Source of the DNA: an uncultured Methanosarcinaceae archaeon
Lineage (GTDB): Archaea > Halobacteriota > Methanosarcinia > Methanosarcinales > Methanosarcinaceae
NCBI GenBank assembly: GCA_963733675.1
Contig: CAVTET010000004.1
Span: 320,001-384,000 of the forward strand
Length of the DNA: 64,000 nucleotides
Reading direction: 5' to 3'
Under the pieces are notes generated by a model that saw only the letters and a program-made list of their open reading frames with translations, was not told where the DNA came from and did no database searches. Below, piece by piece: positions 16,396 through 52,690 of the stretch. The translations under genes and the position numbers were made by a program. Numbering within the stretch: position 1 is the stretch's first letter; each line of letters starts with the position of its first letter.

Positions 16396-16581
16396 TGGAA
16401 ATAAATGATAGAATACATAATATTAATTTTTTCTGTTCTAATTGTTCATGAAGAATTGATTATGAAATTAAAATGAAATTTTTCTAAAAAAGCACGAGTA
16501 AATGAAAGTACTTTTCATCTCACCATTTTTTTGACTATTGAGGATTTCGATAAACATCTGGTTTTTACGAGCTATTTATGT

Positions 16582-16731
16582 GGTTCCGTTGCAAAAAATC
16601 TGGCTTTCTTGCAAAATCAGAAAAAACCTTCACAATTAGGAAAGTTAATCATTTTCATTAGAAAGAAAATGATACACAAAGGTGAAAATTATAGTGTCAA
16701 AATGCAGAAATATTATTTTTGCAACGGAACC
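16582..16731 (+). mobile_element. 150-bp IS6-type MITE (family A) copy 3, inserted in a family-B MITE
   Basis: IS6 TIRs; left flank ATTTATGT (16574-16581) preceded by the left half of a family-B MITE (GAGGATTTCGATAAAC at 16540). Confidence 0.95.
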
Positions 16732-18539
16732 ATGGATAGTTTATTGAAAAATCTTTTCGGTGAAAATTACCCAGATCGCTTGTGGAATGGGATATACTCG
16801 TTAATCGATAAAGATAGTGTACTCTATACTAATTACAATGGTAGCGTTTATGCATTTGCTTTAAGCGATCCAAATAACCTCCTAAAGGCATAATCAAACG
16901 CTACGTGCTAGAAGATGCAGTTACTGCGATTCAGGGTAATAACCATCAAGCTAACACAAGAGTATCTGGCCTTTCTATGACTTACGATGGCCATATTGTT
17001 ATCACCTTTAGCAATGGAGTGGCTGTTATCAATCGTGACCTCAATGCTTCTTCTGCGTCTTTTTACAAGTTTGATGATGATGAATTTGTCACTAACTCAA
17101 TTGCGATAGATGAAAATAGTAGTATATATGTGGCGAGCAATACTATCATGCGCAAGCTCGTCTGGAACGGTACAACTCTTTCTGACAATGTGGCTGATGG
17201 TGCGTGGTTATGCCCGTACACCCATTCGGTACAACCTCCAATCGGCAAAAGTGGGAATGGAACAGGATCAACACCCACTCTCATGGGTTTAGGCAATGAT
17301 CCGGATAAGCTTGTGGTCATAACCGATGGTGCCAAACATATGAACCTTGTGGTATTCGGCGTGACAACATCCCCCCTGGATCCAACCACATCGCTGGGCA
17401 GATCCCAGTAACTTGCGGTTTTTCACCCCTTCCTGAATGGATACAATCGGAATCTTCTGTAGTCGTATATGGATACGGAGCTTTTGTGGCGAATCAGATA
17501 CCGAAAACTATTAGTTCTGACCTTGTAGGCCAAAACCTAATGCTTCAATTCATGCTCTTGGGCCCTGCATATCCAGGACCATATGGCGTTGAGCGCTTTC
17601 AATGGAATACATCAACACATCAATGGTCTTCAGTATGGGCACGATCAGATGTAAAGACAAATGCGACCCCAAATCACAGCCAGTCGGGTAATATGACTCT
17701 TTTCCCTGGTTATAGATTGCCATATGGCTGGGAAGTGCTCGGACTTGATTGGAATACAGGCAAAACCGTGCATCATACTCTTCGGAGATAAGAACTTCGG
17801 AAGCGCAGTATTTTCAGGTCCACTGGAGTATTTGAAAAATGGAGATCTGATTTTCAATTCGATAGTGGGCCCAATTCGTGTAGATTATGCAACAAATCCA
17901 AGTACCCCAAGTGCAGCTCTGACAATAGTAAAATCTGCAGATCCAACAAGTTATGATACTGTAGAACATACTATCACATACCATTACACTGTGACTAACT
18001 CAGGAAATGTAGATATCTCAGCACCGATAACTGTTGCAGACGACAATGCTGGTACAGTACCTATACAAAACAGTGGTATCCCTTAGTCCAGGTTCAAGTG
18101 TACAGGAACAACTACCTACAAAATAACAGATGCCGACATTAATGCAGGTCATGTGACTAATGCAGCATATGCAAAAGGATCATTCAAGAACAACCCAATA
18201 AGTTCACCACTAACAGTTGCTCTAGTTCATTATAAACAGCCAACCAAGAAAGAAGAGCATAATGAAGAGCACATTGGTGACAGAGATAACTATGGCGGAC
18301 CTGGCTATGGTGGTTATGGCGGTACTGTAATTCCTATGATCCCTGGACCAATGTCTAGCAGCCCGATGTATGGCAATTTACCTGATGGGTATGGTAATAT
18401 ACCTAATGTATATACCAGTGGACTTTCTACAGCAGAAATACAAAATTCAGAATCTAATACCCACAAAGCTAAAGCTAATTTGAGCAAACATAAACACCAT
18501 ACAACCAAACATCATAAAACAGGGAAAAAAAGCACTTAG
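16732..18539 (+). pseudogene. Fragmented large surface/secreted protein with DUF11/DUF7507-like Ig domain; 5' end lost at the MITE
   Basis: Consecutive fragments with stops and frameshifts (16905-17411, 17486-17791, 17724-18086, 18153-18539); ALTIVKSADP...TITYHYTVTNSGNV is DUF11-like. Confidence 0.75.
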
Positions 18540-18684
18540 TATTAAATGATAAAAAAACAGTTGAATTTCCAGATGGGTATCCACATCTGAAAGCATTGGA
18601 TATCCTGTATTACAATTTTGAAAACGAATCCAGTTAAATATATTAGGATTGTATTTATTATAAATAAGAGAATAATTAGACGAC

Positions 18685-19636
18685 TTAGAAAAAGAAAGAA
18701 AGGTATCTTGGAAAAGTTGTCTCTACTGTATGCCCAAATACAGTCACTTCGAATCTATACCGATACTTTTCAAATCTATCCGCATCAACTATATCAAACA
18801 CTTTATCTATGTGTTCTGGAAGAACTTGTGAAAACCCATTTTCTTCAGCATATATCGCAGAGGCTCTTAAAAGTTCAATTGCTTTCCTAGCATCTCCATG
18901 TGATTTAGCTGAGATTGCAGCACATAGATTAATAGTTTCTTCAATAATAGATCCTTCATTAAATGCCAATTTAACACGGTCACACAAAATAATTCGTATT
19001 TGATAGGTATCGTATAAAGGAAAAATAAAATCCTTAAAATTCATAGAAGATTTTACTCGTGGATCTAAATTTTCGCCATAGTGAAGATCATTCGAAATGC
19101 CTATAGTTGAGATAAAGTGACCGTTATTAAGAAATTTAGATTCTCCTGCTCGACTAATATTGTAGAGAAAATCGTTTTTTTTAGATAGTAGATTTCATAT
19201 AAAACTACCACAAGAGATACGTTATTCTCTTTGATGACCTTCCATAAGACAGAATAATAATAATCTAAAGAAAACCCTTTCATTGGAATTTTAGTTTCTG
19301 GATCGACCTGTTTAATCATTTCATACAAAATACTGTTCTCCATATGCTGAATTTCACACGAAATGTAAATCCATTTTAAGGTATGATCCATTATTTTTTT
19401 ACTTTCTAAGCGTTCTATCAACTTTTGAAGCAAGAACCTTGTTACTACTGTTTTCCCTGAACCTAGATAACCTAAAACTAATGTATTCGATGGATATCCT
19501 TTTGAGTCAAGTGGTTTAAAGATTCTTGCTAGTTTAGTGATTTCCCTTCTCTTTCCTATCAATTGCGAAGGGACATGATCAGGAGATAAACACAAAACTT
19601 CGCATTATCTGAAACAGTAACTATAAGATCCTTCAT
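18685..19636 (-). pseudogene. cdc6: Orc1/Cdc6 replication initiator pseudogene
   Basis: LSPDHVP, degenerate Walker A GYLGSGKT, degenerate Walker B LVVVLYEI, HGDARKAIELLR; frameshifted and internally deleted. Confidence 0.85.
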
Positions 19637-19754
19637 AACAATTAACTTAAATTCAATTAGGTTATATTGAAAATAAAAAAAATATAGAAAATTTTTATTA
19701 CCCTACAGATAAAACTACATAATACAACTATATAACAAAAAGGGGATCTAAAGA

Positions 19755-20219
19755 ATGGGTGTAGAAACAACTATCAGAGAAATTGCAGATGAACTTGAGA
19801 AAATAGCGACCACTAAGACTGTTGTTGGAGAACCCATTACTGCTGCTGGAAAAACAATTGTTCCCATTTCAAGAATTACTATGGGTTTCGGGGCCGGAGG
19901 TGGAGAAGGTAAGAAGGATAATGAATCGGGGTACGGAGGAGGTGGGGGTGCAGGAGTGAAGATAGAACCTGTGGCCTTCATCATGATTTCCGAAGAAGAA
20001 GCTAGAATTTTCCGTATCTCTGAGAAAAATGACGCTGGATCAATCCTTAGTGCCCTTCCAGATATGTTGCCTGATATTATAGACATGCTCAAAGGAAAAG
20101 GCAAGCATAAAAAAGAAGAAACTCTGGGAGAAATGGAGAACAAAGAAAAAAAAGATAGAGAGGAGGAAACAGCAGAATATACGGAAGCTCAAGTTAAGAA
20201 AGATAGCTGCTCGCAGTAA
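19755..20219 (+). CDS. GerW/YtfJ family protein
   Basis: KTVVGEPI, GFGAGGGEG, GGGGGAGVKIEPVAF. Confidence 0.88.
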   Translation: MGVETTIREIADELEKIATTKTVVGEPITAAGKTIVPISRITMGFGAGGGEGKKDNESGYGGGGGAGVKIEPVAFIMISEEEARIFRISEKNDAGSILSALPDMLPDIIDMLKGKGKHKKEETLGEMENKEKKDREEETAEYTEAQVKKDSCSQ

Positions 20220-20325
20220 ATTTCTTTGAAAATTAAACTCTTTCGAGGAATTTTCAGAAATGAAAATAAAGAACTAAGTTTCTCAAGACATTTAGAACTA
20301 TTCTTTTCCTCAGAATTTGTGTAGT

Positions 20326-21246
20326 ATGCCGTTCATAATCTATCTCTTCATTTTGGTTATTCTGTTGATTATATTTATACTTTTTACAGCAATAGGCCTC
20401 ACTATCAAGTTCAAAATCATAAGTTTGAAGGAAACTAAAGAATTAAGAAGCATATTTGCTGTAAAATGGTTGTTTTTTTCACACAATTTCTTAATTGAAA
20501 TGCCTCAAACTAACAAAAAAACTATTGAGGAACCTGAAGAGTCAAAAGCGGAAAAAGTAGTGGAAACTTGGAAGGATGAAAAAAGGTTTGAACAAAGTGA
20601 AAACATAGCAGAATACATTCCAAAAACAGAATGTAAAGTGCAAGCAGAAAAAAAGAGAGATATCAAAAAGAGAGAATTCGAAGAGAAAACAGTAACTAGT
20701 AAGGGTAAAGGAAAAATTGAAATTAAAAAAAAAACTGAGGATAGGGAAAAAACAGAATCAAATGGTAGAATAAGGGGAAAAGAAAGAATTAAAAAGGAAT
20801 ATGGGGCAGAGCCTAATAATGGGATGACCACCAAAGAAATGTTTCAATGGAGCTTTAAAGCATTTAATTCTCTCAGAAAACCATTATTTTGTCTGTTTTC
20901 TGATTTGTTAAATGGAATAAAAATTAAAAGCCTGGAATCTTGCATGACTTTTTGCCTCCCAGATCCTTCAGATACTGGTATTCTCTGTGGATTTCTGCAT
21001 GCTATCGCAGGATTTGTATACAGCCGTTGTAGGCATTGCAATTTTTCCATAAAACCTGAATTCATGGATCAAATGTTTGATTTTCAGGGAAATTTGGAAA
21101 TACGTATAAAAATACATTCTTTGATCCTTCCATTCATTAAATTTATATTTAACTGGAATACTTTATCTTTCACTTACTCGGTTGTGAAGGATATACTTCA
21201 GCGAAAATGGAAGTCTACGCGGAAGCCTAAATGGAAGTTTGCCTAG
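20326..21246 (+). CDS. DUF2953-like membrane-anchored protein
   Basis: N-terminal TM, Lys/Glu-rich linker, DPSDTGILCG motif; usual partner of YtfJ. Confidence 0.75.
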   Translation: MPFIIYLFILVILLIIFILFTAIGLTIKFKIISLKETKELRSIFAVKWLFFSHNFLIEMPQTNKKTIEEPEESKAEKVVETWKDEKRFEQSENIAEYIPKTECKVQAEKKRDIKKREFEEKTVTSKGKGKIEIKKKTEDREKTESNGRIRGKERIKKEYGAEPNNGMTTKEMFQWSFKAFNSLRKPLFCLFSDLLNGIKIKSLESCMTFCLPDPSDTGILCGFLHAIAGFVYSRCRHCNFSIKPEFMDQMFDFQGNLEIRIKIHSLILPFIKFIFNWNTLSFTYSVVKDILQRKWKSTRKPKWKFA

Positions 21247-21295
21247 AAGTCTAACTCTGAATCTTTATGAACAGGTAATGAGGATACAAGTGAAT

Positions 21296-22261
21296 ATGAT
21301 CAAAGTAGTGTCTCCCTCCAGATTGCATCTTACCCTAATAGACCTCAATGCAGAGCTCGGCAGAGTTGATGGGGGGGTAGGAATTACGCTGGAATACCCA
21401 TCCATGGAACTTTTGGCAGATAAGGCTGATAATATTGAAATTTTTGGAGGTTATGGTCTATCAGGAAAACTGAGAAAAGCGGCAGATTCTCTACTGCCTG
21501 CTGGGAAAGGTATTAAGCTCCATATTAACGACAGTATTCCTGACCATGTAGGTCTCGGTTCTGGGACTCAGGCTGCACTATCGGCAGCGGCAGCTTTAAA
21601 TAAAATTTACGGACTTGGAAAAAGTATTCGGGAACTCGCCGTTGCTGTGGGTAGAGGCGGAACTTCTGGGATAGGAGTTGCTGCTTTTGAATACGGTGGT
21701 ATCATCCTGGATGGAGGCCATAAATTTAAGGATAAACGTGAATTTTCTCCTTCTGCTGTCTCACATGTACCTCCTGGTCCTATGCTCTTCAGGAAAAATT
21801 TTCCGGACTGGCCGATTGTCCTTGCAATCCCCAATACTAAAGGAGTACATGGCTCAGAAGAAGTGGATATTTTCAAAAAATATTGCCCTATCCAGCTTGC
21901 GGAAGTCCAGGAGATTTCCCATGTAATCCTTACTCAGATGCTACCGGCAATAATGGAAGAAGACCTGGAAAGCTTCGGCAGGGCGATAAACCACTTCCAG
22001 ATTGCAGGTTTTAAGAAGCGTGAAGTCGAACTTCAGGAACGGCCTGTTCTGGACATCATGGAGTATCTGCGAGATAATGGAGCAAGTGGTTCAGGAATTA
22101 GTTCTTTTGGGCCAGTAGTTTACGGGATTGTTGGCAGCATCGAAGAAGGTAAAAAACTTCAGAAAGAATCTCAGCGAATGCTTAATGAGTCTCTTGGTGG
22201 GAAAGTATTGCTCACAAAGGCTAAAAATCGTGGCGCTGATATATTTGGGGGTTCTGCTTGA
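21296..22261 (+). CDS. Beta-ribofuranosylaminobenzene 5'-phosphate synthase (methanopterin biosynthesis, GHMP kinase family)
   Basis: SPSRLHLTLIDL, HVGLGSGTQ, GRGGTSGIG, DGGH, SSFGP. Confidence 0.93.
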   Translation: MIKVVSPSRLHLTLIDLNAELGRVDGGVGITLEYPSMELLADKADNIEIFGGYGLSGKLRKAADSLLPAGKGIKLHINDSIPDHVGLGSGTQAALSAAAALNKIYGLGKSIRELAVAVGRGGTSGIGVAAFEYGGIILDGGHKFKDKREFSPSAVSHVPPGPMLFRKNFPDWPIVLAIPNTKGVHGSEEVDIFKKYCPIQLAEVQEISHVILTQMLPAIMEEDLESFGRAINHFQIAGFKKREVELQERPVLDIMEYLRDNGASGSGISSFGPVVYGIVGSIEEGKKLQKESQRMLNESLGGKVLLTKAKNRGADIFGGSA

Positions 22262-23265
22262 AAATTAATACCTGGTTTGGAATTCTTGAGATAAGCAGAA
22301 CAGGAGAAATTATAGAATCCGAGCTTTTTTCAAAGGATAGCCAGGAGCTTGCATGTCATTCCCTTGCCATAAGAGAAAACATACCAAATCTTCTGCCTGT
22401 GAAATTTGATTTGAAAGCTGCAGCTATCGATTGTAGGTTTGTAGCTTCTCCTTCAGAATACTATTCCCTTTTACACGAAGTAACTCTAAAAACTACAAAA
22501 CTTCAAGTATCAGGAGCTCTTACCCCTGATCAGCGAATTATCCAGGCTGTGGAAGCCCTGGATGACATTAATGGAAATGTAAATTCCCTATCGGAAAGAC
22601 TTTTCGAATGGTATGGGATTTATTTCCCAGAAAGCGGTCTTGGAGGAGAAGCTCTTGCCATTTTTGTTGCATATTATGGTTCACCTAAGAATATAGAGTC
22701 TGAAAATCCTCTTTATTCAAAGACCATAAATTCCATGGGTGCAGAACTAGAAGCTGCAGATGAACTGCTTCTTAAAGGCTTTGCAGAAAGCGTCTACAGC
22801 CTGTATGAAAGAAAGAGACAGATAGAAACTTATATTGAAGATAGCATGGGATCTCTTTCACCGAACCTGAAACTCATTGCAGGCCCAATTCTTGGGGCAA
22901 GATTAATAAGCATTGCAGGGAGCCTAGAAAAACTTGCCGCTTTTCCTTCAAGTACCATTCAAGTTATAGGAGCTAGCAAGGCTCTCTTCAAGCACCTCCG
23001 AGCTCGAGCTCCATCTCCTAAACATGGAATTATCTACAGTCATCATCTAGTGAATACTGCTCCCTGGTGGGTAAGGGGAAAAATCTCAAGAGCACTTGCA
23101 GGAAAGTTATCCCTTGCTGCGAGACTCGACTATTATTCAGGCGAAAAAGATCCCACTCTTGTAGAAAAACTTGAAACAAAGGTCCGACAGATCAAGGCTT
23201 CGAATCCAAAATCTCCTCAAAGAACGCAAGTAAATGAGACAAAAACCAAAAAAAGGAAGAAGTAA
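22258..23265 (+). CDS. nop5: Box C/D RNP protein Nop5 (Nop56/58)
   Basis: EWYGIYFPE, STIQVIGA.KALFKHL, PKHGIIY; adjacent to fibrillarin. Confidence 0.93.
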   Translation: MKINTWFGILEISRTGEIIESELFSKDSQELACHSLAIRENIPNLLPVKFDLKAAAIDCRFVASPSEYYSLLHEVTLKTTKLQVSGALTPDQRIIQAVEALDDINGNVNSLSERLFEWYGIYFPESGLGGEALAIFVAYYGSPKNIESENPLYSKTINSMGAELEAADELLLKGFAESVYSLYERKRQIETYIEDSMGSLSPNLKLIAGPILGARLISIAGSLEKLAAFPSSTIQVIGASKALFKHLRARAPSPKHGIIYSHHLVNTAPWWVRGKISRALAGKLSLAARLDYYSGEKDPTLVEKLETKVRQIKASNPKSPQRTQVNETKTKKRKK

Positions 23266-23949
23266 ATGCCTGAAATAAATAAACTATATGATGGGATTTA
23301 TGAGGTTGTGAAAGACAAAAAGCATCTTGCTACACGGAATATTGACTTTGGTAAAGTAGTATACGGAGAAAAACTAATTACTTTTGAAGGGGTTGAGTAC
23401 CGAATATGGGACCCTCACAGGAGCAAGCTGGGAGCCATGATCCTAAAGAAGTTCAACATACCAATTAAAGAAGATTCTAAAGTTATCTATCTTGGAGCAG
23501 CATCAGGCACAACTGTCAGTCATGTATCTGACATCGTTTCAAACGGTGCAGTCTATGCCGTTGAGTTCGCCCCGCGAAGTATGAGAGATCTCATAGGACT
23601 TGCATCTAGACGGAAAAATATTTATCCAATCCTAGCTGATGCAAGGAAACCGGATAGTTATGCCCATCTGGTTGAACCTGTGGATCTCATCTTCCAGGAT
23701 GTTGCACAACCCAACCAGGTCGAAATAGCTACAAGAAATGCTTCTCGCTTTTTGAAAAGAGATGGGAATCTCCTGCTTTCTATCAAGGCACGAAGTATCG
23801 ATACTGTAGTAAACCCTAAAAAAATATTTACAAATGAGCTTCGAAAATTAGAGCAAACACTTGAACCAAAATTCGAAATCATTTGTGTAAAGAACCTGAT
23901 ACCCTATTATGAAGACCACCTCGGAGTTCTTGCAAAATTAGAAAGTTAA
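23266..23949 (+). CDS. flpA: Fibrillarin-like rRNA/tRNA 2'-O-methyltransferase
   Basis: VYGEK, YRIWDP.RSKL, YLGAASGTTVSHVSD, QDVAQPNQ. Confidence 0.97.
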   Translation: MPEINKLYDGIYEVVKDKKHLATRNIDFGKVVYGEKLITFEGVEYRIWDPHRSKLGAMILKKFNIPIKEDSKVIYLGAASGTTVSHVSDIVSNGAVYAVEFAPRSMRDLIGLASRRKNIYPILADARKPDSYAHLVEPVDLIFQDVAQPNQVEIATRNASRFLKRDGNLLLSIKARSIDTVVNPKKIFTNELRKLEQTLEPKFEIICVKNLIPYYEDHLGVLAKLES

Positions 23950-24116
23950 ATCATTATCACATCACTTAGTTATAAATTTTTAAGTAATTTTGGTGAAGTT
24001 ATTTTTCATTATCATAATAAACTATTTCATTATCTTAAATAATTTCTTTGATGTTTATCTTATTTATAAAATTAGTTTCATAACTGAAAACGTTCAGAAA
24101 TACTGTTTATTACATC

Positions 24117-25434: not shown

Positions 25435-25517
25435 ATTTTATCCTACATATGATAGTTGATGCTGATATGTGTGCAAATCCTATTTTTTATTTAAATTGAT
25501 CTTTTAAAATCCCAAGT

Positions 25518-32699: not shown

Positions 32700-33356
32700 C
32701 TTTTTTGCTAACTATTTTTTAACTTAAATCATGTCCGTCCATAAATTAGAGATTTTCCAACGCTTCGCAGCGCACCAATTATTGGAATACAATTGAATTG
32801 TCGTTGATTATCGTTTACAATTGATTACAATTGATAAAAAGCTAATAAAGTCAGAATTTAGTGGTAAAAGAAAGAGGTTATTGTATGATTGGTCTTGGAG
32901 AAATTAACTTTTATGGGGCTAATCTTAAAATAATCAACCTTGAAAGAGCTAACCTTGAAAGAACTAATCTTACAGGAGCTAATCTCCAAGGAGCAAACCT
33001 TTTTATGACTAACCTTAGAGGAGCTAATCTCCAAAGAGCGAATTTTGAAGGAGCTAACCTTGAAAGAGCTCTTCTTGAGATAGCTAATTCTTTTATGGCA
33101 AATCTTGAAAAATCTAGCTTCGGCGGAGCTATCTTTGATGGAACAAACCTTGAAGGAGCTAACCTTACAGGAGCTTTCAATTTATCAATTGACCAGCTAT
33201 CTAAAGTGAGAACGCTTTATAATGCAAAAATAGATGAAGAACTCCTTATACAACTGAAAGAGGAGTTTCCCTCCCTATTTAAATCACTAAAGCAGAAGTT
33301 TCCAGAATATCAGAGCAACCTTTTAGGAGCTAACGCACGCAACAATCTATAGAAAA
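32700..33356 (+). repeat. Inverted duplication arm 1 (arm 2 at 38495-39046)
   Basis: Identical by eye to the reverse complement of 38495-39046 except for a 105-bp in-frame indel. Confidence 0.95.
32861..33352 (+). CDS. Pentapeptide-repeat protein
   Basis: A(N/D)LxG/R pentapeptides; C-terminal NLSIDQLSKVRTLYNAKID. Confidence 0.85.
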   Translation: MVKERGYCMIGLGEINFYGANLKIINLERANLERTNLTGANLQGANLFMTNLRGANLQRANFEGANLERALLEIANSFMANLEKSSFGGAIFDGTNLEGANLTGAFNLSIDQLSKVRTLYNAKIDEELLIQLKEEFPSLFKSLKQKFPEYQSNLLGANARNNL

Positions 33357-33368
33357 ACTAAGCCTATA

Positions 33369-33457
33369 GAGGATTTCAGTAAACCTATTAATTTCGTCAT
33401 GTGATCATAAATGGTACACAAATGATTCTTAAAAAATAGATGTTTATTGAAGTCCTC
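33369..33457. mobile_element. ~88-bp MITE (family B) copy
   Basis: GAGGATTTCAGTAAAC...GTTTATTGAAGTCCTC. Confidence 0.75.
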
Positions 33458-33469
33458 TTTAATCTAATA

Positions 33470-34330
33470 TCACCTTTTTTTGGATCATTAGAAAGATCCC
33501 TGTTTTCTTCAAACCATCTACAGTATTCTTCAGGGCATTGTATCTCAGGGCACTTATGTATATATTCCAGGATATCTCTCATTTTCGCACTGGCCATTGA
33601 TACTGACACATCCTCATTTCCATAATAAATGCAAATTTCATCATCCACTAAGCCCATCCGCAAGGAAAAACAACATCATTAACGTATCCACTACGTTCAT
33701 ACATTTCACGAGGCCCGAAACCCCATTCTTCAGATATGTGAAGCACTTTCATGAGATCTTCAGGATCAAGAAGAGCCAATACAAGTCGATAACTTGCTTT
33801 ATATGTCGTCTGGTGTACTCCATGAGGTTGTGGTGCAAAAATGATATTTCCGCAGTTTGATACTACAATTCTTGCCTTTGGGTACCAGTTTCCCGGTGAG
33901 GGGAATAATTAACTTTCCTAATTGTGAAGGTTTACACTTATTTTGCAACAAAGACATATTTTTGGTACCATAACCGCATATATTACGGCCCATTTTTCTA
34001 TCTCATCAATGTAAGTTATATGTGCATCTTCAATTCCATATATCTATTCAGGGTAGTTTATAGGATCTGGAGCAAAGGTTGGTTTGCTGTCAATCTCCCA
34101 ACCCAGCCATCAATTCCATTCTGACTCCTGGCTCCCGTAAAATGGGAAAAGTTCCTGTGATCTTCGACACGCACCAGTAATAAATTTATACCATTAAAAC
34201 TAAGCGTCTGCAGGGTTAAAGACTGAGTGGGCCTGATCTGGCAAATCTTCAAAGGTAAGTGTAGGATTGGTCTCACATCTTTGGAACAGCTCTCCGTGAT
34301 TTTTCGATATCATGTTATTTTCCTCATTTT
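33470..34330 (-). pseudogene. GH130 (PH1107-like) glycosidase/phosphorylase pseudogene, interrupted by a MITE
   Basis: Fragments LLVRVEDHRNFSH...SQNGIDGW, YGIEDAHITY, YERSGYVNDVVFPCG, ICIYYG; frameshifts and a missing middle. Confidence 0.8.
33826..33975 (-). mobile_element. 150-bp MITE (family A), divergent copy 5
   Basis: TIR variants GGTTGTGGTGCAAAA / TTTTGGTACCATAACC; shares internal TTAACTTTCCTAATTGTGAAGGTTT; same 150-bp length. Confidence 0.85.
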
Positions 34331-35079
34331 ATCTGATTTGCTAATGATATTTTCTTTTTTTTCAGCAGAGCTCTGGCGTCTGCTTCATCATTTACTCTGG
34401 GTTGCAATAATGTACTGAATACTCTCTTTTCATGTTTATTTTAAAGACTAAAAGTCTTGAAGTAACAAATTACGAGTTCTGTATCGTTATTGTAGTTAAT
34501 GCTGTAGCTGCTGAACTTGGCGTAGACAACACTTAGTGTGATAAAAATATAATTAATATTTAAATATTGTTTTATTTTGATACATTCTAAGTAGGAGTAG
34601 CTTTGTTCAGAGGCAATTTTCATGTAATTAATTTGAAATAAACATAGAAATTATTAAACAAAGTTTATTTAACTGAATCATGTAGTAAAACCAATTGGTA
34701 TAATCTACATGTAGTGGATAAATAATGAAAATGAGATTGATAGTTCATTTGTTCTACTTCCCACAGATCTACACAAAAATGTCATATATTTCCTCAATAT
34801 AGAAGTATCTTAAAATTTAGTCTGCATTGTTGTGAATTTGCTGTAATTAGATGTCAAATTTTCGTGTGCTGTAAATACTTTTATTCTTCGATACGAATCA
34901 AATCGAGTCTCCGACTGGAGCACAGGAACGAAGTATAAATTATGAAGAAGTATTCCAGAAAGAAGATTAAAGGGCTAGAGCAAATTTTACAGAAAATCGG
35001 TACATTATTTTTTATGTGTTAAAATTTATTTTTTGAAATCCTGTGACTGTGAGGTTGATAGTAAAGTTAAATAAAAAAT

Positions 35080-35175
35080 TGGACCTCTGCCTATTCAAGA
35101 TTCTACCCATATACGTCCTACATTTCTTTTTGCAATTTTTTTACAAATTGCAAGCCCTATTCCTATTCGAGGACA
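35080..35175 (-). pseudogene. Histidine kinase HATPase_c C-terminal fragment
   Basis: GIGLAICKKIAKRNVGRIWVES*IGRG (G2 box region). Confidence 0.65.
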
Positions 35176-35675
35176 ATCCGTCATTACTTCGGTCAAAGGA
35201 TCATGAGGTCCAGTAGCTTCAGGTCTTCGAGTAATCTACTTAAGAGTTGATAGCACTTGATTTATATGGATTCCAAATCCGTAGTTAAGATTCTCTGCTT
35301 CTTTTAGCCACTTGGGATATTCTTAAAGATCATTTTTCATATTTGTACAATGACCAAAGGGTATGACATTGCATTTAAAAATTTTTATTTAAAATATAAA
35401 GCGTTGATAATACTTTTCATCATGTTTTTAAAATCTAGAATTTGATCTAAGCTCAATTTGCATTGTTTCTTTAGAAAATGTTCAATGTTAAATTTGTGGA
35501 GATCTCTATAATAAAAATTACATAATCAATATTAAATTATTGTTTAAGATTAAAACATTTTATTCAGAAGTAACTTTTATCAAGAAACTATTTTTTGTAT
35601 AATTAATTTAAAATAACTAAGGGGATAACTGTACATTGTAGCTTAAAATGAACAGATTTTGGCAGTTTTAGGTTT

Positions 35676-35979
35676 AAAGTTTATTAATTTTAGTAACTAG
35701 CAGTTTAACTGTCTGAATAATGAATTTGACCAAAATATATATTGTGCTTGATTTTGGGTCTTTAAGTGTACAAGTTCTAGATTTCTTAATCCAATTAAGT
35801 ATGTACTACTGTATGAGTCAGTCCTTAAAAGTTTATTAATTTTAGTAACTAGCAGTTTAACTGTCTGAATAATGAATTTGACCAAAATATATATTGTGCT
35901 TGATTTTGGGTCTTTAAGTGTACAAGTTCTAGATTTCTTAATCCAATTAAGTATGTACTACTGTATGAGTCAGTCCTTA
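35676..35979 (+). repeat. Perfect tandem duplication of 152 bp
   Basis: 35676-35827 is identical to 35828-35979. Confidence 0.97.
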
Positions 35980-36547
35980 TGGAAAAGCTACAGGAATTGT
36001 AGATATCAAAATTCAATGAAAACTTGAATAGTAACATACCAACCTATAACTACATTGGAATTTGAGGTCTTTTAGTCCATGAAGATCTGGAAATATGGGG
36101 AAAATGTATCCAATAATTGAGTACAACATATGTAGGGCAGGCTATTGCCTACTGTGGAGTTTGCCCTATATAGGTTTTTGATATTGAAGTGATTGATAAG
36201 ATAAAAAGGAAGTTGTAGCCCACCCTGAAAATTGATATAATGCGAGCAGTGTGTGTAAGTCTTTACTAAGATACTATCGGGCTTGTTGAAAGCTAAATTC
36301 AAACTCTAAAAAGTGGTGAAAATAGTGCATTACAGAATTGATTATAATAAGTGTGTAGGTTTATTGAATGCTATGATGTCCGTCAATGTGGACGTGTTTG
36401 ATGCGGAAGAGGTTACTGGAGGACAGAGGGTGTTTGTAGCACGCTCTGAAGCTATGCTTTATATTGTCCCACAATTGCGTAAATCCTAATATTTATAGAG
36501 CTAGTATCAGAAGTTGAAACGGTGTAATTGCAAATAATTCATTATTT

Positions 36548-36940
36548 TTGACAGCAAGGACGATAAAAGGGGGCAAAATCATCAATATGGATGGAGAACA
36601 TCTGGGAAAGATTGAAGACATAATGATTGATCTAGAAAATGGTAGAGTAGCATATTCAGTACTCTCTTTTGGCAGATTCCTGTGTCTTGGAAATAAACTG
36701 TTTGCTGTTCCCCGTGAAGCTCTTTCAGTGAGGCCACATGAACAAGCTTTCTTTTTTGACGTTGCAAAAAAAATCCTGAAAGAGACCGAAGGCTTTGATA
36801 AGGACGACTGGCCTCTAACTCGTGAGCGGTTAGCTAATATTTATACTTGCTACGGATACAAGCCTTGCTGGCAGACAAGAGTTTTAGAGCAGACAAAAAA
36901 AGAGAGGCCAGGAGAGATAGAAGCAAAAAGAATATCCTAA
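36548..36940 (+). CDS. PRC-barrel domain protein (start possibly degraded)
   Basis: GEHLGKIEDIMIDLENGRVAYSVLSFG...KLFAVP. Confidence 0.8.
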   Translation: MTARTIKGGKIINMDGEHLGKIEDIMIDLENGRVAYSVLSFGRFLCLGNKLFAVPREALSVRPHEQAFFFDVAKKILKETEGFDKDDWPLTRERLANIYTCYGYKPCWQTRVLEQTKKERPGEIEAKRIS

Positions 36941-37080
36941 ATAGAAAAGAAGGCAGAATCAAAATAAGAAATAGAAGAAGCTAAAGTTGAGCTATACACC
37001 CCTCTGAAAATAGAAAAAGTAAAAAGAAAGGTCTTTTGGACACTTGCAAGTAAGTAGGTTTTGGTATTGGAGATGAGTCA

Positions 37081-37368
37081 TTGATAAAATCTGATAAAAT
37101 GAGCATATTGCTCTATTTTGGGATAATTTGCAAGCCTGATGGTAAAATAAAGATGAAGAAGGCAGTACATCTTGTGGGTACAGGCATGATTGGCGGAGCA
37201 TTTTGGGGTATTTTGATAGGAATGTTTGCTTTGTTTATCTTAATCGCGAAATGGGCTGAAGATAATGCGCTAGATAAATTAAAAAAGTTCAAAGCAACAA
37301 TAATACGCGCACCTCTTTCTAATGAAGATGAAGTTAACCTTAAAGTCGCTTATTGTGCTGATGAATAA
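37081..37368 (+). pseudogene. DUF1269-like membrane protein remnant
   Basis: PDGKIKMKKAVHLVGTGMIGGAFWGILIG joined directly to ALFIL...IIRAPLS; internal deletion. Confidence 0.6.
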
Positions 37369-37628
37369 TTAAAAGATTGAGAGGTATCAAGGATAAATGA
37401 GTGAAAAAAATCTTCACAGATTCTAACTACCGGTTTCTTCAATGAATAATATTGTGCAAATAGGCGAACAAATTCTATATATGTGTACATCTGCTGAATG
37501 TTGGATAAATTGAACCTAATGAAGCTAGTTTATAGACGATTTATACAGAGTCGCTCGAGTTTTATGATTTTACAAAAAATCGATACATTGGCGAGCAATC
37601 CTTACTCAAACTATTCATCCTCAAGTGT

Positions 37629-38323
37629 TTATCTTTTTTTCCTGTTAAGTAGCCAGCTTGCAGAGATGAAGACGATAACCGCAATAGCTGTGTAAAACGC
37701 AATAAGTAAAAGAGAACCGTATTTACTCTGCAAGAAAGGATTTGTGTTATCTATCTGCTCATTGGATGGATACATAATATCCTGCGGATCAATGCTATGA
37801 TCCAACTCCAAGGCATGGCCTAATTCATGTTCTGCAATGGCAAGCATTGCTGTATCACTATATGGTACCCATTCCATCCACTGAGAATTTCCAACTTCAA
37901 GTATAATATCTACGGATATAAATCGGCCATTGGCACCACGCCGGATTGTTTCACCTGCAACTTCTTGAGGAGCACCTTGATCTTTCTGCAAGTTTGCATC
38001 CCATCTTATCCTGATATCAGCATCTTCTGAATCCACAATCTCAAAGATAGGGATGTATTTCAGTTTTCCATTTCCACCTCCTGCCCAGTAATTCAGAGCT
38101 TTTTTACATCTGAATAATAGGTGAGACTATAATGGAGAGGAACAATTTTGTTATCTATATATACGGTGATAGGGGAATGATCCCATGGGTGATCTAAAAA
38201 TCTTGGATAACCAACTTCTGAAGCTTTCGAGGTGATGGCCAAAATAAGTATCATTAACGACAGTAAAAATAATAGTTTTATCGTATATCGACAGATTTGG
38301 TTAATATACACCTCCCTCTGCAT
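37629..38323 (-). pseudogene. Matrixin (M10) zinc metalloprotease, frameshifted
   Basis: Signal peptide plus PWDHSPITVYID (38093-38323); HELGHALELDHS...DIMYP plus C-terminal TM (37629-38036). Confidence 0.82.
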
Positions 38324-38498
38324 TATTTTAGTCCTTAACTTAATGAATTATACTTTTTATCTCTGAGTGAAAAGTTTCTATTGGAAGCGGCAGAATATCA
38401 TTCTTCATTGTTTTGAACCCTTTTTCAACAAAAACTGTGCATAAAAACATGCTATCCTAAAAATATTTTTTTAAAAATAGAGGGGATTTCGATATTTT

Positions 38499-45902: not shown

Positions 45903-46067
45903 CAGTACATTGTCCTCATGCTATTTATTGTAGAAACTTTTAAAGTACCTTTTCAGAACCAAAATATACATTACACAGAAGTTTCTTGAGTAATTGAATA
46001 TTCCACACAACAAAAAACATTTCATAAAACTGAACACATTATAAAAAGTAATTCCCCTCGAATTGCA

Positions 46068-46135
46068 GAGGATTTCAATAAACGTCTCAATTTATATAAA
46101 TAATTCATGAAAATCAGAGGTTTACCCAAATCCTC
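46068..46135. mobile_element. Family-B MITE, internally shortened
   Basis: GAGGATTTCAATAAAC...GTTTACCCAAATCCTC. Confidence 0.65.
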
Positions 46136-46898
46136 TGCAAACGATTCATAAAAAAATTTAGTCCAGAAAACTTCTGTTTATACCTTTCTCTTCAAAAGCT
46201 GAAAAGAATAAACTCTGGAAACGCTTTTCTTTAAAAAGAATCCCTGTTAAAGAATAAGGATTACATCAATATATATTTTATGCCAAAAAAGTCAGAGAAG
46301 AGTGATAAATAAGGAACTTTGATTTCTTTAACTACTTTGTGCTTTTTCCTGAAATAATTTAGCTTAAAAACTTGTTTTAATTTTGTCATATTAGCATAAC
46401 CCAAACAACTTAGCTCCTGTTATAAATTTTGCTTCCACTATCAATTTGTTCAATAAAACATTTCCTAAGGAGTACAGTTTCCCAAGTTTTTAGTCTATGT
46501 GATGCCTTTTGTGTATCATTGAATGAATTTCTTAAAATTTTTAAACTCATCTCTGAAATTAGTTTGTTCAAGAACCGAAGCCGAATTTCGACTTCTTTAG
46601 ATTTGAGAGGAATGGGTAATCGTATCAACCCTTATTTGTACAATATTCACACGAAACTCCTAAATATTTTTATATGAATATACTTATTATAGAATCTACT
46701 AAAACAATACAATTGAAAATAATGAATGTTTCAAATCTCCATTTTTAATGTGGCTAAAAAAAGAATGATAACTACAATCAGTTTTTTTCAAGACACCTTG
46801 AAGTGGTTTTGAATATACTATATTGGATTCAGTATTTCCATTTTTTTGGAATCAGAAAGCTTATTTTGTTGTTCAAAGTATTGATACTACGAATTTGT

Positions 46899-47750
46899 GG
46901 TTCCGTTGCAAAAACTTCAACAAAATATGTAAATCTATAAGTGATTAATAAAAATCAAAACATTCAAGGAAAATGTACTAACATTATAAAACTATATCAA
47001 ATAATTGATTAATGTATTTGACTTCATTAAGAACAGAGTAATTTAGATCGATTACTTGTCCTTTTTGATCATATTTATAGCTTCAATTCCTTTTAAAGTC
47101 TTATTAGCAGATCGAAAAGACTGAAATCCTAACATTGGATTAACGATTCGCTTTATAGATCTGTGATCTTGTTCTATAATGTTATTCAAATACTTGATTT
47201 GTCGAATGCCTACGTTTTTAGGTAGTATTTTATCAATTTTTAGTTTATCTATAGCAGGTGGATAAGCTGGATTCTTATCAACGGTTATTAATCTTGGAAT
47301 TTGATTATGATTAGAACTTAAAGCTTTCTTAAAGAATCTCTTTGCTGCTTTTCTATCTCGTTTTGAACTTAACATGAAAGCAATTGTATCTCCATTTGAG
47401 TCAACTGCTCGGTAAAAATATTTCCATTTACCTTTTACTTTGATATAGGTTTCGTCAACTCTCCACGAATAGTTTGTTAGTCTTAAATGTCTTCTTATCT
47501 TCTTTTCGATTTCAGGAGAATATTGATGTACCCATCTCATGATTGTTGTATGGTCGACTTTTACTCCCCTTTCTGCCATCATTTCCTTTAAAGTTCTATA
47601 ACTTAATGCATATTTTAAGTACCATCTTACATTCAATAAGATAATTTCCCCTTCATAATGCTTCCATTTAAAGGAATTAGATAGCATGTTACTATCTTTG
47701 GTTTTTTTTATTCTATTGTATCATTAGAAAGGATTTTTTGCAACGGAACC
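46899..47750 (-). mobile_element. IS6-family insertion sequence, copy 1
   Basis: 852 bp, TIRs GGTTCCGTTGCAAAA; DDE transposase 47052-47687. Confidence 0.96.
47052..47687 (-). pseudogene. IS6 transposase, C-terminally frameshifted (211 aa)
   Basis: WRVDETYIKVKGKW, NNIIEQDHR; diverges from copy 2 after NMIKK. Confidence 0.85.
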
Positions 47751-47774
47751 AGAAATATTGTCTTATCGCGGTTT

Positions 47775-48266
47775 TTAGCCAAGTTTTTCGAATTTGGATA
47801 CAGGTGCCCCACAAATTGGACATTTTCCATGAGGTTCACATTCCTTAGTATATCCGCAGATACTGCAGACGTAGTAATCAACTTCTTCATTCTTTCCAAT
47901 TTCATCCAGGGCTTTTTCGTATAATCCAGCATGGATCTTTTCTACTTTATTTGCCACCTCAAAGCTCCAGAGAGCCCTGTTATCCCCTTCTTCCTTTGCC
48001 GCATCTATAAATTTGGGGTACATTTTTGTAAATTCGTATGTTTCGCCGTTAATGGCATCTTTCAAGTTGTCCATTGTAGTTCCAATCCCACCCATACGCT
48101 GGAAATGATTGAAAGCGTGGACAGTTTCCGCAGCAGCAGCAGCTCTAAATAATTTAGCTATCTGATGATACCCTTCTTCATCGGCTTTTTTCGCAAAGGC
48201 CAAGTATGTCCTGTTTGCCATTGATTCGCCAGTAAATGCAGCTCTAAGATCATCTTTGGAACTCAT
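47775..48266 (-). CDS. Rubrerythrin
   Basis: AFTGESMANRTY, AETVHA, EKIHA, C-terminal CSICGY...CPICG. Confidence 0.95.
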   Translation of the reverse strand: MSSKDDLRAAFTGESMANRTYLAFAKKADEEGYHQIAKLFRAAAAAETVHAFNHFQRMGGIGTTMDNLKDAINGETYEFTKMYPKFIDAAKEEGDNRALWSFEVANKVEKIHAGLYEKALDEIGKNEEVDYYVCSICGYTKECEPHGKCPICGAPVSKFEKLG

Positions 48267-48572
48267 AAATATCTCCCTTAATTTAAATTTTTTTCACCCT
48301 AATTAGTGGTTATATATATCATTTTAACGCCAATGATGTATCACAAAATTATCAACGTATCTATGGCAGCATAGTATTCCTTTTTACCCATACCTGATAT
48401 ATATTCTGAAAACGAGCTATATAACCTCAAAAATTCAGATAGTTATAAGATTTTGGCGAAGTACTAAATCTAATTGCTATGACTCTAGAAAAGCTTATAA
48501 AATGACTGGCAATTATACATCAACTAAATCTTTTGAAGTACTGGAATCACCTTAGACTAGCTTCTAGAATAG

Positions 48573-49400
48573 ATGATAAAAATGGTTCAGAAAATGCACT
48601 ACTCAAGGAGGAACAATTCTCCTTTCCTACTTGAATTAAAAAACGTAACTGTTATCAAGTGTAGGAAAAAGATCCTCGATTCGGTATCAATCTCTATTGA
48701 ACAGGGAGAACATGTTGCAATTATAGGGCCAAATGGCTCTGGAAAATCCTCTCTTATCAAGACTTTTACAAAGGAATACCATCCTCTTGCATCAACCGAC
48801 GAGTTTGTTCTAAAGATAATGGGCAAAGATATCTGGAATGTTTTTGAGCTCAGAAAATTATTGGGAATAGTCTCTGGAGATCTTCAGCAGACATACTGCC
48901 GTCAGATTAACGTTTTGGATGTAATACTCTCTGGATTTTTCAGCAGTATAGGAATTCATTATAATCATGACGTTACTCCTGAAATGGAAAACAGAGCCAG
49001 AGAAATTTTGGAATTCCTTGAAATTTTACATCTGGAAAACAGACTTATATGCGAACTCTCCACCGGAGAAGCCAGACGAATACTGATAGGAAGAGCCCTG
49101 GTGCATGATCCCTATGCCCTTGTTTTAGATGAACCAGCAAACAGCCTTGACCTAAAGGCTCTTTATAGCTTCCGCGAGTGCATCAGGAAAATTGCAAGTT
49201 CAGGAAAAAGCGTGATCCTGGTCACTCACAATCTTCAGGACATTATTCCCGAAATAAACCGTGTGGTTCTCATAAGAGAGGGAAAAATCTTCAGAGATGG
49301 GAAAAAAGGTGATATCCTAACAGATGCCAACCTCTCAGAACTTTTATCCCTCCCAGTAAGGGTTCTGGAAAAGGGAGGGTTCTACCAAGCTCTGATCTGA
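48573..49400 (+). CDS. ABC transporter ATP-binding protein (ModF-like)
   Basis: GPNGSGKS, LSTGE, LVLDEP, VTH. Confidence 0.92.
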   Translation: MIKMVQKMHYSRRNNSPFLLELKNVTVIKCRKKILDSVSISIEQGEHVAIIGPNGSGKSSLIKTFTKEYHPLASTDEFVLKIMGKDIWNVFELRKLLGIVSGDLQQTYCRQINVLDVILSGFFSSIGIHYNHDVTPEMENRAREILEFLEILHLENRLICELSTGEARRILIGRALVHDPYALVLDEPANSLDLKALYSFRECIRKIASSGKSVILVTHNLQDIIPEINRVVLIREGKIFRDGKKGDILTDANLSELLSLPVRVLEKGGFYQALI

Positions 49401-49918
49401 TGAGAATTATTCTGCAGCTCGTAAATAAGTCATCGAACTTTACCCTACAAAGTGTAGAGAGCTGCTCCACCCGTTATTTTTCCAGCAACACACTCGACTC
49501 TAAATTTTTATATTTCTTAATCCTATATTCCAAGTCACTTTCATCTGACGTGACTAAGTTAGGTGCTTTAAGAGATGATTAGTTTCCTCTTTCGGCTTAC
49601 TCTACCGTTTCGGAATATATTCTCTTATGATATCAGATGTCACATTTTCAATTGGTTAGAGAGAAATCATGAAACGCATTACTACGACAGTAAACTCAAC
49701 CTAACGGCTTCTACAAGCCTTCGCCGACGAACAGACCGGTAACAGTGTAGCACAGGGAATAATTAATCAAGTGCCTACCGTTCGACTGTCAGCCGAGTGC
49801 AACCTGATAGGCGCTGACGACTGCACTGGTTTAGTGTTCACCGAGAGTGCTGACGAGGCGACTCGCTAGTGACAATCACGTAACTTCACTGCGACTATAG
49901 GAGTCTCCGACCGTACAG

Positions 49919-50476
49919 GCTGTTGGTTTTTTGGGAAACGAATTAGTTGCAAAGTTCAGGATTAGGGTGGGGAGGGAAATCGGGAGCGCTGCTCTTGTTG
50001 TAGATGGTTACCATGCGCAGGAAGACGGTTTTTCTAGCCTTGCCGTGCTTTTCGGGGCATTTGGTATCTGGTTAGGTTATCCACTTGCTGATCCTTTAAT
50101 AGGACTTCTTATTACAATTGTAATCTTGTGAATAGTCTGGGAAGCAGGTAAATCAGTATTCTACCGTATGCTTGATGGTGTGGAACCAGGAATTGTTGAC
50201 GAGATCCATCAGGTCGTTAGTAAGGTAGAAAATGTAAGGGATGTGACTGAGATACGAGTAAGCTGGCTTAGGCACAGGCTTCACGCGGAAGTGAATATTG
50301 CGGTAGACCCACTGTTTTCTGTTGAAGAAGGGCATTCAACTGCCGTGGAGATACGACAGAAAATGATACATGATCTAAGTTACCTCTCGAATGCAGTTGT
50401 ACATGTAGACCCACTTGATTCATCTGGAGAATTTTTCCATCAATCTTCGAAAACAAGGAAACATATTGTAACGTGA
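49919..50476 (+). pseudogene. Cation diffusion facilitator (CDF) transporter, 3' half only
   Basis: GFLGNELVAKFRIRVGREIGSAALVVDGYH, ADPLIGL, stop at 50129-50131, MLDG...HAEVNI...VHVDP. Confidence 0.88.
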
Positions 50477-50720
50477 GATCATAAATCAGGAGACAGGAAT
50501 AGCACAGCATATTTTACTTCTTACTTCCTATTATTCTGGATGTGGTAGGGCTTGCGATTTGTAAAAGAATTATAGAAAGGCATGTAGGGGTATATGAGTA
50601 AAATAGGAACTAGGAAAATGTTCGACTTTTTATTTCACTTTAACAATTAATCCTGTAGAATTTCAAAAACTAAATTTTAATACATAAGAAAAAAAACTTT
50701 TAATTTTTTATTGAAATTAA

Positions 50721-51574
50721 GGTTCCGTTGCAAAAAAATCAAAAAAATATGTAAATCTATAAGTAATGAATAAAAATCAAAGTATTCAAGGAAAATGTAC
50801 TAACATTATAAAACTATACCAAACAATTGATTAATGTATTTGACTTCATTAAGAACAGAGTAATTTAAATTATTGACTTGTCCTTTTTTGATCATATTCA
50901 TAGTTTCAATTATTTTTAAAGTTTTATTAGCAGACCGAAAAGACTGAAATCCTAATATTGGATTAACGATTCGCTTTATAGATCTATGATCTTGTTCTAT
51001 AATGTTATTCAAATACTTGATTTGTCGAATGCCTACGTTTTTAGGTAGTATTTTATCAATTTTTAGTTTATCTATAGCAGGTGGATAAGCTGAATTCTTA
51101 TCAACGGTTATTAATCTTGGAATTTGATTATGATTAGAACTTAAAGCTTTCTTAAAGAATCTCTTCGCTGCCTTTCTATCTCGTTTTGAACTTAACATGA
51201 AATCAATTGTATCTACATTGGAATCAACTGCTCGATAAAGATATTTCCATTTACCTTTTACTTTGATATAGGTTTCATCAACTCTCCATGAATCATTTGT
51301 TAGTCTTAAATGTCTTCTGATCTTTTTTTCTATCTCAGGGAAATATTGATGCACCCATCTCATTATAGTACTGTGATCAACTTGAATTCCTCTTTCTATC
51401 ATCATTTCCTTTAAATTTCTATAGCTCAATGGATATTTTAAGTACCATCTTAAATTTAATAGGATAATTTCTCCTTCATAATGCTTCCATTTAAAGGAAT
51501 TAGATAGCATATTACTATCTTTGGTTTTCTTTTTATTCTATTGTATCATTAGAAAGGATTTTTGCAACGGAACC
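50721..51574 (-). mobile_element. IS6-family insertion sequence, copy 2
   Basis: 854 bp, same TIRs, same orientation as copy 1. Confidence 0.96.
50806..51510 (-). CDS. IS6-family DDE transposase, apparently full length (234 aa)
   Basis: FKWKH, VDHSTIMRWV, DETY, TVDK, IEQDH. Confidence 0.95.
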   Translation of the reverse strand: MLSNSFKWKHYEGEIILLNLRWYLKYPLSYRNLKEMMIERGIQVDHSTIMRWVHQYFPEIEKKIRRHLRLTNDSWRVDETYIKVKGKWKYLYRAVDSNVDTIDFMLSSKRDRKAAKRFFKKALSSNHNQIPRLITVDKNSAYPPAIDKLKIDKILPKNVGIRQIKYLNNIIEQDHRSIKRIVNPILGFQSFRSANKTLKIIETMNMIKKGQVNNLNYSVLNEVKYINQLFGIVL

Positions 51575-51798
51575 ATAGTTAGACCCAAAATTTTAGAAAA
51601 ATTAGTCCATACTAAAGGTAGTCTGCTGATCGTAATATCCACCAAAAAATTTTCATTTACAAACGGGTATTATTTAATAGACATGTCTTCGTATTTATGT
51701 GCATACAGAGAAACAATTTCTCACTTAGATGTGGTATCCAACAAATATTTTGGAATAATGATCCGAAAACCTTCACATATCTGGAGGCAATAATCCGA

Positions 51799-51920
51799 AT
51801 GCCTGCATGCCAAGATTGTAAATTTTATGCATCTGTTGATGAGCAAAAGGGCGAATGTTTTAGCCTAGGCTTTGAAGTACGTGGTAAAACCGATTCTAAG
51901 CAGGCCTTCAGCCTGGAAAA
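51799..51920 (+). pseudogene. Small Cys-rich protein (benzylsuccinate synthase gamma-subunit-like), probably damaged
   Basis: GGAGG RBS then MPACQDCKFYASVDEQKGECF; the expected final Cys and stop are absent. Confidence 0.4.
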
Positions 51921-52264
51921 AATGAGAAAAACTTCCAATAATTTTTACGCTTTCTGCTCGCCGAAATTAAATGGCCTAGATAAAATCGCATTCAAGGTTT
52001 TAGCCCATTTTTTGCAGACATATCTGCCAACACATCACTTCCACGACACATTTCAAAGGAAAGAGTATCATGGGCTTCATTTTTTGTATCTTTTCTTTTT
52101 TGTACAAATTTGTGGCGAAGCCTAAAATATGAACAAAATTCTCTATGATATTTTTGGGAAGCACTTGATGAATGGATCATTTCATTCAATGCAAATTGCG
52201 CAGTGACTTCAAGATTTATCTTATCTGTGTTCTGGTGTGTTAATACTGAGGGATAACAGCAATG

Positions 52265-52488
52265 AAAAAATTTGTGTGAATGTCTAAACAACAAAATTTA
52301 GTTACGATTTTTGACAATTTAGATCCTCAAATCTATTTGGTAATGCAGTTGTCTCAAAAGCAATTTGGTGCACTTGATCAAGGTTATATTTAAGCCTTAA
52401 ATGAAATTCACATATTAGTATTATATAATTTTTAAAAATTGGGATTAATACAAACTTTCTGCTAAAGATAATCATGAAATCAATAAAT
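52265..52488 (+). repeat. ~220-bp dispersed non-coding repeat, copy 2
   Basis: Homologous to 14841-15060. Confidence 0.85.
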
Positions 52489-52540
52489 TATTTCGATAAA
52501 CTCCTAAATTTAGTCATATGCTTATAAGTGATACATAAAT

Positions 52541-52690
52541 GGTTCCGTTGCAAAAATAATATTTCTGCATTTTGACACTATAATTTTCACCTTTGTGTAT
52601 CATTTTCTTTCTAATGAAAATGATTAACTTTCCTAATTGTGAAGGTTTTTTCTGATTTTGCAAGAAAGCCAGATTTTTTGCAACGGAACC
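52541..52690 (-). mobile_element. 150-bp IS6-type MITE (family A) copy 4
   Basis: Reverse complement of copy 3; flank ACATAAAT (52533-52540) is the reverse complement of ATTTATGT. Confidence 0.95.

Follow-up and report, generated by a model that had tools for sequence, protein, structure and literature searches.

How does a segment of an archaeal chromosome come to be turned round between two copies of an element that encodes no transposase? The question is raised by a 64,000-nucleotide stretch from an uncultured Methanosarcinaceae archaeon (the window, G000:C4:320001-384000, on contig C4 of a 3.92-Mb genome, G000, that is in 15 contigs and 92% complete). [quoted passage not shown] Metagenome runs that contain DNA of the window come from soil, peat and permafrost. 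A sequence-only reading had proposed that the enclosed segment was inverted by the MITE, either through mobilisation in trans or through recombination between inverted copies. Comparison with relatives (59 genomes of the genus and metagenome contigs) confirms that the rearrangement is real, well anchored and recurrent in G000. The earlier interpretation is supported; both of its routes are retained below, and of the two we favour replicative transposition.

An inversion with a split target

MITE copy 3 (16582-16731, plus strand) and the reverse complement of copy 4 (52541-52690, minus strand) are equal at 150/150 bases, as had been judged by eye, with 16-bp perfect terminal inverted repeats. 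Each has the other as its sole exact match in the genome's set of 66 full-length copies, the nearest other copy having one difference, and identical pairs are rare in this set (5/2145). A private C at element position 96 is found only in these two of the 19 close copies. The 8-mer ATTTATGT adjoins the left end of copy 3 on its outer side (16574-16581, plus strand), and its reverse complement ACATAAAT adjoins the right end of copy 4 on its inner side (52533-52540, minus strand). This arrangement, with inverted 8-mers of which one touches a left end and the other a right end, had been likened to the intramolecular product of IS26, and it matches the geometry described by He et al. (PMC4471558). 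Pairing of 8-bp flanks across the genome, a check suggested with the original proposal, gave six exact matches of a left with a right flank among the 66 MITE copies; controls with shifted offsets gave a mean of 0.26 and a maximum of 2.

A second repeat was split by the same event. Its left part lies at 16540-16573 (plus strand) and its right part at 52489-52532 (minus strand). With nhmmer, 16529-16581 matches positions 10-62 of the profile of this repeat, family B, and 52480-52545 on the minus strand matches positions 50-115. When the halves are rejoined in silico the score is 84.7 bits with one 8-mer, 75.5 with two and 69.8 with none, and in relatives the halves are continuous. Joining 16540-16581 to the reversed 52489-52532 thus rebuilds one family-B repeat, as had been claimed; the further label of MITE is better given as MITE-like. 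Family B appears to be a MITE-like repeat judging from its features: it is AT-rich, about 95 bp long, dispersed, multicopy and non-coding, has inverted ends, and is present in 271 near-full genome copies in a BLAST search with one seed. The copy at 14601-14695 has a predicted hairpin with z = -4.8, and a Rfam scan of the window gave 0 matches. Copies in the window lie at 2307, 2547, 14592, 24105, 31825, 33357, 41541, 46060 and 53166. We also considered family B as a hot spot for IS6 insertion and rejected it, as 4/384 ends fall in the repeat and 0-6 do so in shifted controls.

The ancestral junction in relatives

The left flank was matched at 91-97% identity in five of the 59 genomes; four of these reach the junction, and the contig of the fifth (G045) stops before it. 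In all four sister genomes 16581 meets the reverse of 52540; the two sides overlap at the 8-mer, with no MITE present, and in G063 the target 8-mer has one mismatch. A search with a 26-base flank pattern added two metagenome contigs of 95-99% identity, both with the empty junction and one exact 8-mer. The predicted junction, an empty site with one 8-mer, is therefore found in 6/6 relatives spanning it. Relatives with the present orientation and no MITE at these points, the case that would have spoken against an inversion, were not observed.

In G059 and G062 the block 47750-52533 continues into the left flank and is collinear with it once the segment is flipped; the orientation is shown only in these two genomes. 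The expectation that flipping restores synteny thus holds at the 16581 junction and for about 5 kb beyond it, and what remains of the 36 kb is a patchwork left by earlier events. Nothing could be learned from distant Methanosarcina (72-78% protein identity at the flank gene): 5/5 examined have a different neighbourhood upstream of that gene, and thermosome and fibrillarin lie far apart in them. A separate inversion of about 2 kb covers the flank gene and the ancestral junction in G046:C40 and G063:C66, relative to G059 and G062.

The MITE family and its IS6 partner

Six-frame translation of the MITE gives at most 50 codons and no transposase. An 854-bp IS6 element with the same 16-bp ends as the MITE lies inside the inverted segment (50721-51574, minus strand), with an open 234-residue DDE transposase frame at 50806-51510. 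The frame matches PF13610 (E 4.7e-45, 153.6 bits against a cut-off of 27) and NF033587 (270.5 bits against a cut-off of 125). The length and single open reading frame of the element agree with the 700-890 bp described for the family (PMC7986276). It has a 16-bp perfect terminal repeat with a GG tip, G7 and G10, and the transposase carries the bacterial E-DH---K motif at residue 170, in line with the features of ends and signature given by Harmer and Hall (PMC6807381). The intact transposase had been pointed out as lying inside the segment. Its frame is indeed open, but this copy is not special, because 50 of the 101 full IS6 copies in G000 have a reading frame of at least 225 amino acids.

The transposase is found in 21/59 genus genomes (E <= 1e-40), and its closest relatives are records from uncultured Methanosarcinaceae and Methanosarcina sp.; together with the archaeal marker genes fibrillarin, thermosome and TgtA, these put the genome in Methanosarcina or next to it. 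A midpoint-rooted tree was built from 50 rows (49 usable frames of 80 fetched loci and the window protein). Its cluster there contains 24 further rows from methanogens (97/94), and all the remaining rows are bacterial except for one methanogen row. Annotated IS6 transposases carried by Bacillus and Alicyclobacillus plasmids have 63-65% identity to it. In this identity, the E-DH---K signature and the GG/G7/G10 ends it resembles IS6/IS26 elements of the Bacillota, which we take to be IS240-like, and it differs from them in residing in Methanosarcinaceae. It is also unlike the divergent archaeal IS6 clades described by Harmer and Hall (PMC6807381), who could find no experimental data on archaeal members and whose archaeal clades diverge further than the present element does.

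The MITE and IS6 share 16-17 terminal bases only. Their interiors show no similarity beyond chance, which speaks against derivation of the MITE by internal deletion; with only the ends in common, the MITE is likely to be moved in trans. A hybrid at G000:C6:262718-263619 consists of a full IS6 and the last 47 bp of the MITE right end, with an 8-bp duplication around the whole unit. The MITE end thus appears usable by the transposase, and this arrangement suggests that the transposase uses it as a transposition end. A further IS6 joined to a 47-bp MITE right end lies at G000:C1:646090-646999. Exact 8-bp target duplications are rare for both elements, with 5/101 full IS copies, 2/66 MITE copies in G000 and 1/22 MITE copies in G062; IS6 targets are AT-rich.

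Recurrence in the genome

Three further targets split by MITEs in G000 rejoin in relatives. The pair at C4 687109/732659 has a 45.5-kb segment between inverted copies, and its flanks meet at one 8-mer in G045, G046 and G063; G059 has no match and G062 a short match only. A pair divided between C11 and C12 rejoins in 5/5 relatives. A pair divided between C6 and C1 rejoins exactly in G045 only, one of the four relatives with a match, and in the other three the flanks are about 750 bases apart. Two of the three rejoining pairs have partners with 3 differences between them, which come first or second in similarity among 65 copies. For the split pair at C1 585107/675513, and for the empty site of the hybrid, no relative had an orthologous flank. 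The match at C1 395177/399021 was set aside as chance (43 differences, low complexity).

When G000 was compared with 500 kb of G059:C3, 20/98 synteny-block ends touched an IS6-type end (11 IS, 9 MITE), against 0.2% of random positions; these random positions include genic DNA, and the breaks may date from either lineage. MITE ends make up 125/399 of the IS6-type ends. Neighbouring MITE pairs at most 3 kb apart are inverted in 13/19 cases, and in 11/12 cases when the copies have at most 7 differences (nominal p = 0.006, with the threshold chosen afterwards).

Among side observations on these families, identical head-to-head MITE copies were found at G000:C6:39022-39885, where the inverted identity runs 12 bp into the 564-bp spacer. 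Inverted pairs of full IS6 copies with split 8-mers at G000:C4:502111/517469 and G000:C12:99716/101510 (15 and 55 differences) are candidates for IS-bounded inversions. A second inverted MITE pair in the window (9956-10105 and 10567-10716) has 6 differences, a spacing of 462 bp and no split 8-mer; a synteny break lies at the second of these, copy 2, and its partner end is at a MITE on C6.

How the inversion arose

Our favoured reading is that the inversion was made in one step, by intramolecular replicative (copy-in) transposition of the non-autonomous MITE in the 'trans' orientation, and we give this a probability of about 0.6. Transposase from any of the roughly 50 open-frame IS6 copies would have bound the 16-bp ends of a MITE near 52.6 kb, and these ends would have been joined to a staggered 8-bp target inside the family-B repeat 36 kb off. 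Replication would then have doubled the MITE and the target and flipped the intervening DNA, with copy 4 presumably at the donor position and copy 3 the new copy at the target. At an earlier time the same donor may have deleted the 5' part of its neighbouring gene, the 'cis' outcome of the reaction. The remainder of this gene forms the inner left flank (16732-18184, plus strand); it is a broken 3' portion of a gene that is intact and about 670 amino acids long in G063. The break is at codon 165 and coincides exactly with the MITE end. The first 492 coding nucleotides gave no blastn or tblastn match in G000, within the limits of a 92% complete genome. A partial gene at an element end is described by He et al. 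as a mark of a deletion by the cis pathway (PMC4471558), and the truncation here is probably the product of such an adjacent deletion. Both this partial gene and the rarity of intact duplications are as for IS26.

The main competitor, which we regard as possible and roughly half as probable, has two steps. A daughter MITE would have inserted with an ordinary 8-bp duplication, for instance by copy-in to another copy of the chromosome followed by resolution, and the segment would then have flipped by exchange between the inverted copies, through host homologous recombination or the targeted conservative reaction of the transposase. Such a flip could be reversible. Mobilisation of the MITE in trans by the IS6 transposase would hold for this route as for copy-in, because a new site was reached with an 8-bp duplication. 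Methanosarcina has several chromosome copies per cell, which would facilitate the first step. For IS26 and IS1216, PMC7986276 documents targeted conservative exchange. The end state of copy-in is the same as that of insertion followed by recombination, and a number of observations weigh against copy-in or qualify it, some of which fit the two-step route directly. In two of the five split pairs the copies belong to different MITE sub-lineages (6 and 7 differences, with five diagnostic sites in common), from which it follows that flank exchange or conversion between 150-bp copies occurs in G000. At G000:C1:357844 an intact duplication surrounds a simple insertion that has an identical inverted copy 522 bp away, and a nested 5.4-kb inversion between pentapeptide-repeat paralogues is present inside the segment. 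None of the 11 close near-identical inverted MITE pairs is among the exact split 8-mers. A sample from G062 (22 usable of 32 fetched copies, with 40 of 250 candidates scored) gave 0 split pairs and one intact duplication. The remaining flanks of the window pair, 16732-16739 ATGGATAG and 52691-52698 CGATTTCT (the outer right flank), show no duplication, so that the donor had no target duplication, and genome-wide pairing of its own flank 8-mers with other element ends gave no partner for either; the proposed earlier cis deletion would account for these unmatched flanks. Collinearity with the junction in relatives covers only about 5 kb of the segment, and the private allele at position 96 was not seen in contigs of 4/4 metagenome runs, where the common allele alone appeared, contigs being prone to drop rare variants. 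The targeted reaction of IS26 is also described as needing an active transposase in both partners (Varani et al., PMC7986276), a hint that the family may prefer to act in cis. Nevertheless, copy-in remains our preferred explanation because it accounts for the twin copies, the split target and the flip by a single event, and the rival needs insertion and a later flip, two or three events in all. The intermediate that it calls for was seen in 0/6 relatives, none of them the same strain. A length of 150 bp is also a short substrate for recombination. The 855-bp IS copies are split no more often than the MITEs; the ratio of split to intact targets is 5:2 for MITEs and 4:5 for IS copies, a difference that is not significant (p = 0.36).

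Two further explanations were weighed. An assembly isomer is in our view improbable; in it the true chromosome would carry, at 16582, a simple insertion whose duplication is intact, and the flanks would have been swapped at the identical 150-bp repeats. It has in its favour that flipping the inner segment yields an ordinary insertion with a direct 8-bp repeat. Logan contigs of four metagenome runs support both local junctions: run X1 covers 15342-16610, 29 bases into the MITE, and contigs of runs X1, X2 and X5 run from 16708 into the gene remnant. No contig among the listed pieces of the four runs spans the MITE, and short-read contigs cannot phase the repeat. The assembly of G000 crosses 21 repeat pairs of at least 800 bp and at least 99.5% identity in the interior of its contigs and one repeat of 5 kb, which makes a swap at the MITEs unlikely and points to long reads; several of its contigs terminate in 3-10-kb repeats. 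The pattern is also seen at pairs whose copies have 3 differences and whose targets rejoin in relatives. The last explanation, a chance match of an AT-rich 8-mer between unrelated insertions, draws on the AT-rich targets of IS6 and on the controls, which reached 2 matches among 66 copies. It is refuted by the relatives, where the flanks are contiguous through exactly that 8-mer in 6/6, and we give it practically no weight.

Apart from these explanations, a MITE-to-MITE joint with 18 letters between the copies was noticed in the run contigs. A circular form was rejected as its source, since the joint matches the assembly junction at C4:793616 and an internal stretch of the IS. The stop-free frame of the MITE continues in frame into the truncated gene as a 120-residue open reading frame at 16531-16893, which is probably fortuitous because the gene behind it is broken.

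Relation to known systems

Intramolecular copy-in in trans has been described for IS26 by He et al. (2015; PMC4471558). The features shared with that description are inverted copies, inverted 8-bp flanks, inverted DNA between them, rare intact duplications and partial genes left by deletion; in one of the IS26 cases a second mobile element split in two marks the event, as the family-B repeat does here. IS26 is there an autonomous element of enterobacterial plasmids, whereas the present element is 150 bp long, has no transposase and resides in an archaeal chromosome. The chemistry of the reaction is thus already known from IS26, an element that spreads resistance in bacteria, and the literature searched did not yield a non-autonomous driver in an archaeon. 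Nor did it show an inversion with a split target that is bounded by an IS6-type MITE, in archaea or elsewhere; ISfinder and supplements lay outside the search, and a prior description is possible.

Several miniature elements offer partial parallels. MITEBth2 and MITEHarch3 are listed by ISfinder as IS6-family MITEs (PMC6807381), of 227 and 336 bp (PMC7986276). They share IS6-type ends without a transposase and differ in size, with no mobility or rearrangement reported for them in these sources; we set them apart by their descriptions and not by their sequences. The Tn3-derived miniature elements known as TIMEs and IS101 (PMC4133298, PMC13367494) are likewise non-autonomous and moved in trans by a replicative transposase, and cointegrates were shown for IS101. 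Intramolecular replicative transposition was speculated for MITESen1 (PMC4133298, PMC13367494). Unlike the present MITE, the Tn3-derived elements are described with 5-6-bp duplications and some with res sites, and plasmid inversions are ascribed to resolvase. The SM and SMN MITEs of Sulfolobus (PMC3718332, PMC10969869) are archaeal, non-autonomous and mobilised by resident IS transposases; their IS partners are other ones, and the accounts describe insertions, not MITE-bounded inversions with split targets.

Work on the mechanism of the IS6/IS26 group has so far dealt almost exclusively with autonomous elements of clinical plasmids. The ancestral junctions in relatives provide states before and after for four MITE-bounded rearrangements. 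If copy-in is the true mechanism, 16-bp ends suffice in trans and archaeal replication can complete the reaction, which matters for the question whether mini-elements that have IS26-type ends can move or reshuffle DNA while lacking their own transposase. More broadly, and at slightly less than even odds, a bacterial-type IS6 that entered a soil and peat Methanosarcina lineage may support 150-bp MITEs in full IS26-type copy-in in trans through their 16-bp ends, giving inversions of tens of kb and adjacent deletions and a little under half of the IS6-type synteny breaks (9/20 in one 500-kb comparison). MITEs would then be a main engine of chromosome reshuffling in this lineage and not passive debris. 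Tools that look for transposase genes only would miss a large share of the breakpoints in such genomes.

The inverted segment and its neighbours

The segment carries nop5/fibrillarin, tgtA, thermosome, a rubrerythrin-like gene, an ABC ATPase and two IS6 copies. The second IS6 copy (46899-47750, minus strand), whose transposase frame ends early at 211 amino acids, marks an older breakpoint. In G059 the portion 19214-46561 stands apart as a block 70 kb away and has a nested inversion of its own. Outside the roughly 5 kb adjacent to the junction, the segment is an older patchwork of earlier events. When the 36 kb is flipped back in silico, the IS at 46899 becomes inverted relative to the IS at C4:502111 (17 differences), and a second inversion between these two would yield the three-block order of G059. 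This fits the MITE event being the latest in the history of the block; the size of the segment at the time of that event is likewise part of our reconstruction.

A scan for promoters found 2 where 2.9 were expected, which is nothing notable, and GC skew gave no signal. Relative to G059 the 5.4-kb stretch at 33050-38494 is inverted, and it lies between two inverted pentapeptide-repeat paralogues whose identity in G000 is 96-97%; it looks like a product of recombination between the paralogues. Two tandem 152-bp copies, 99% identical, lie at 35673-35976. Repeats of 102 bp at 52797-53167 on the minus strand, which end about 170 bp from MITE copy 4, presumably represent a broken tetratricopeptide-repeat gene, a label that we give from their periodicity.

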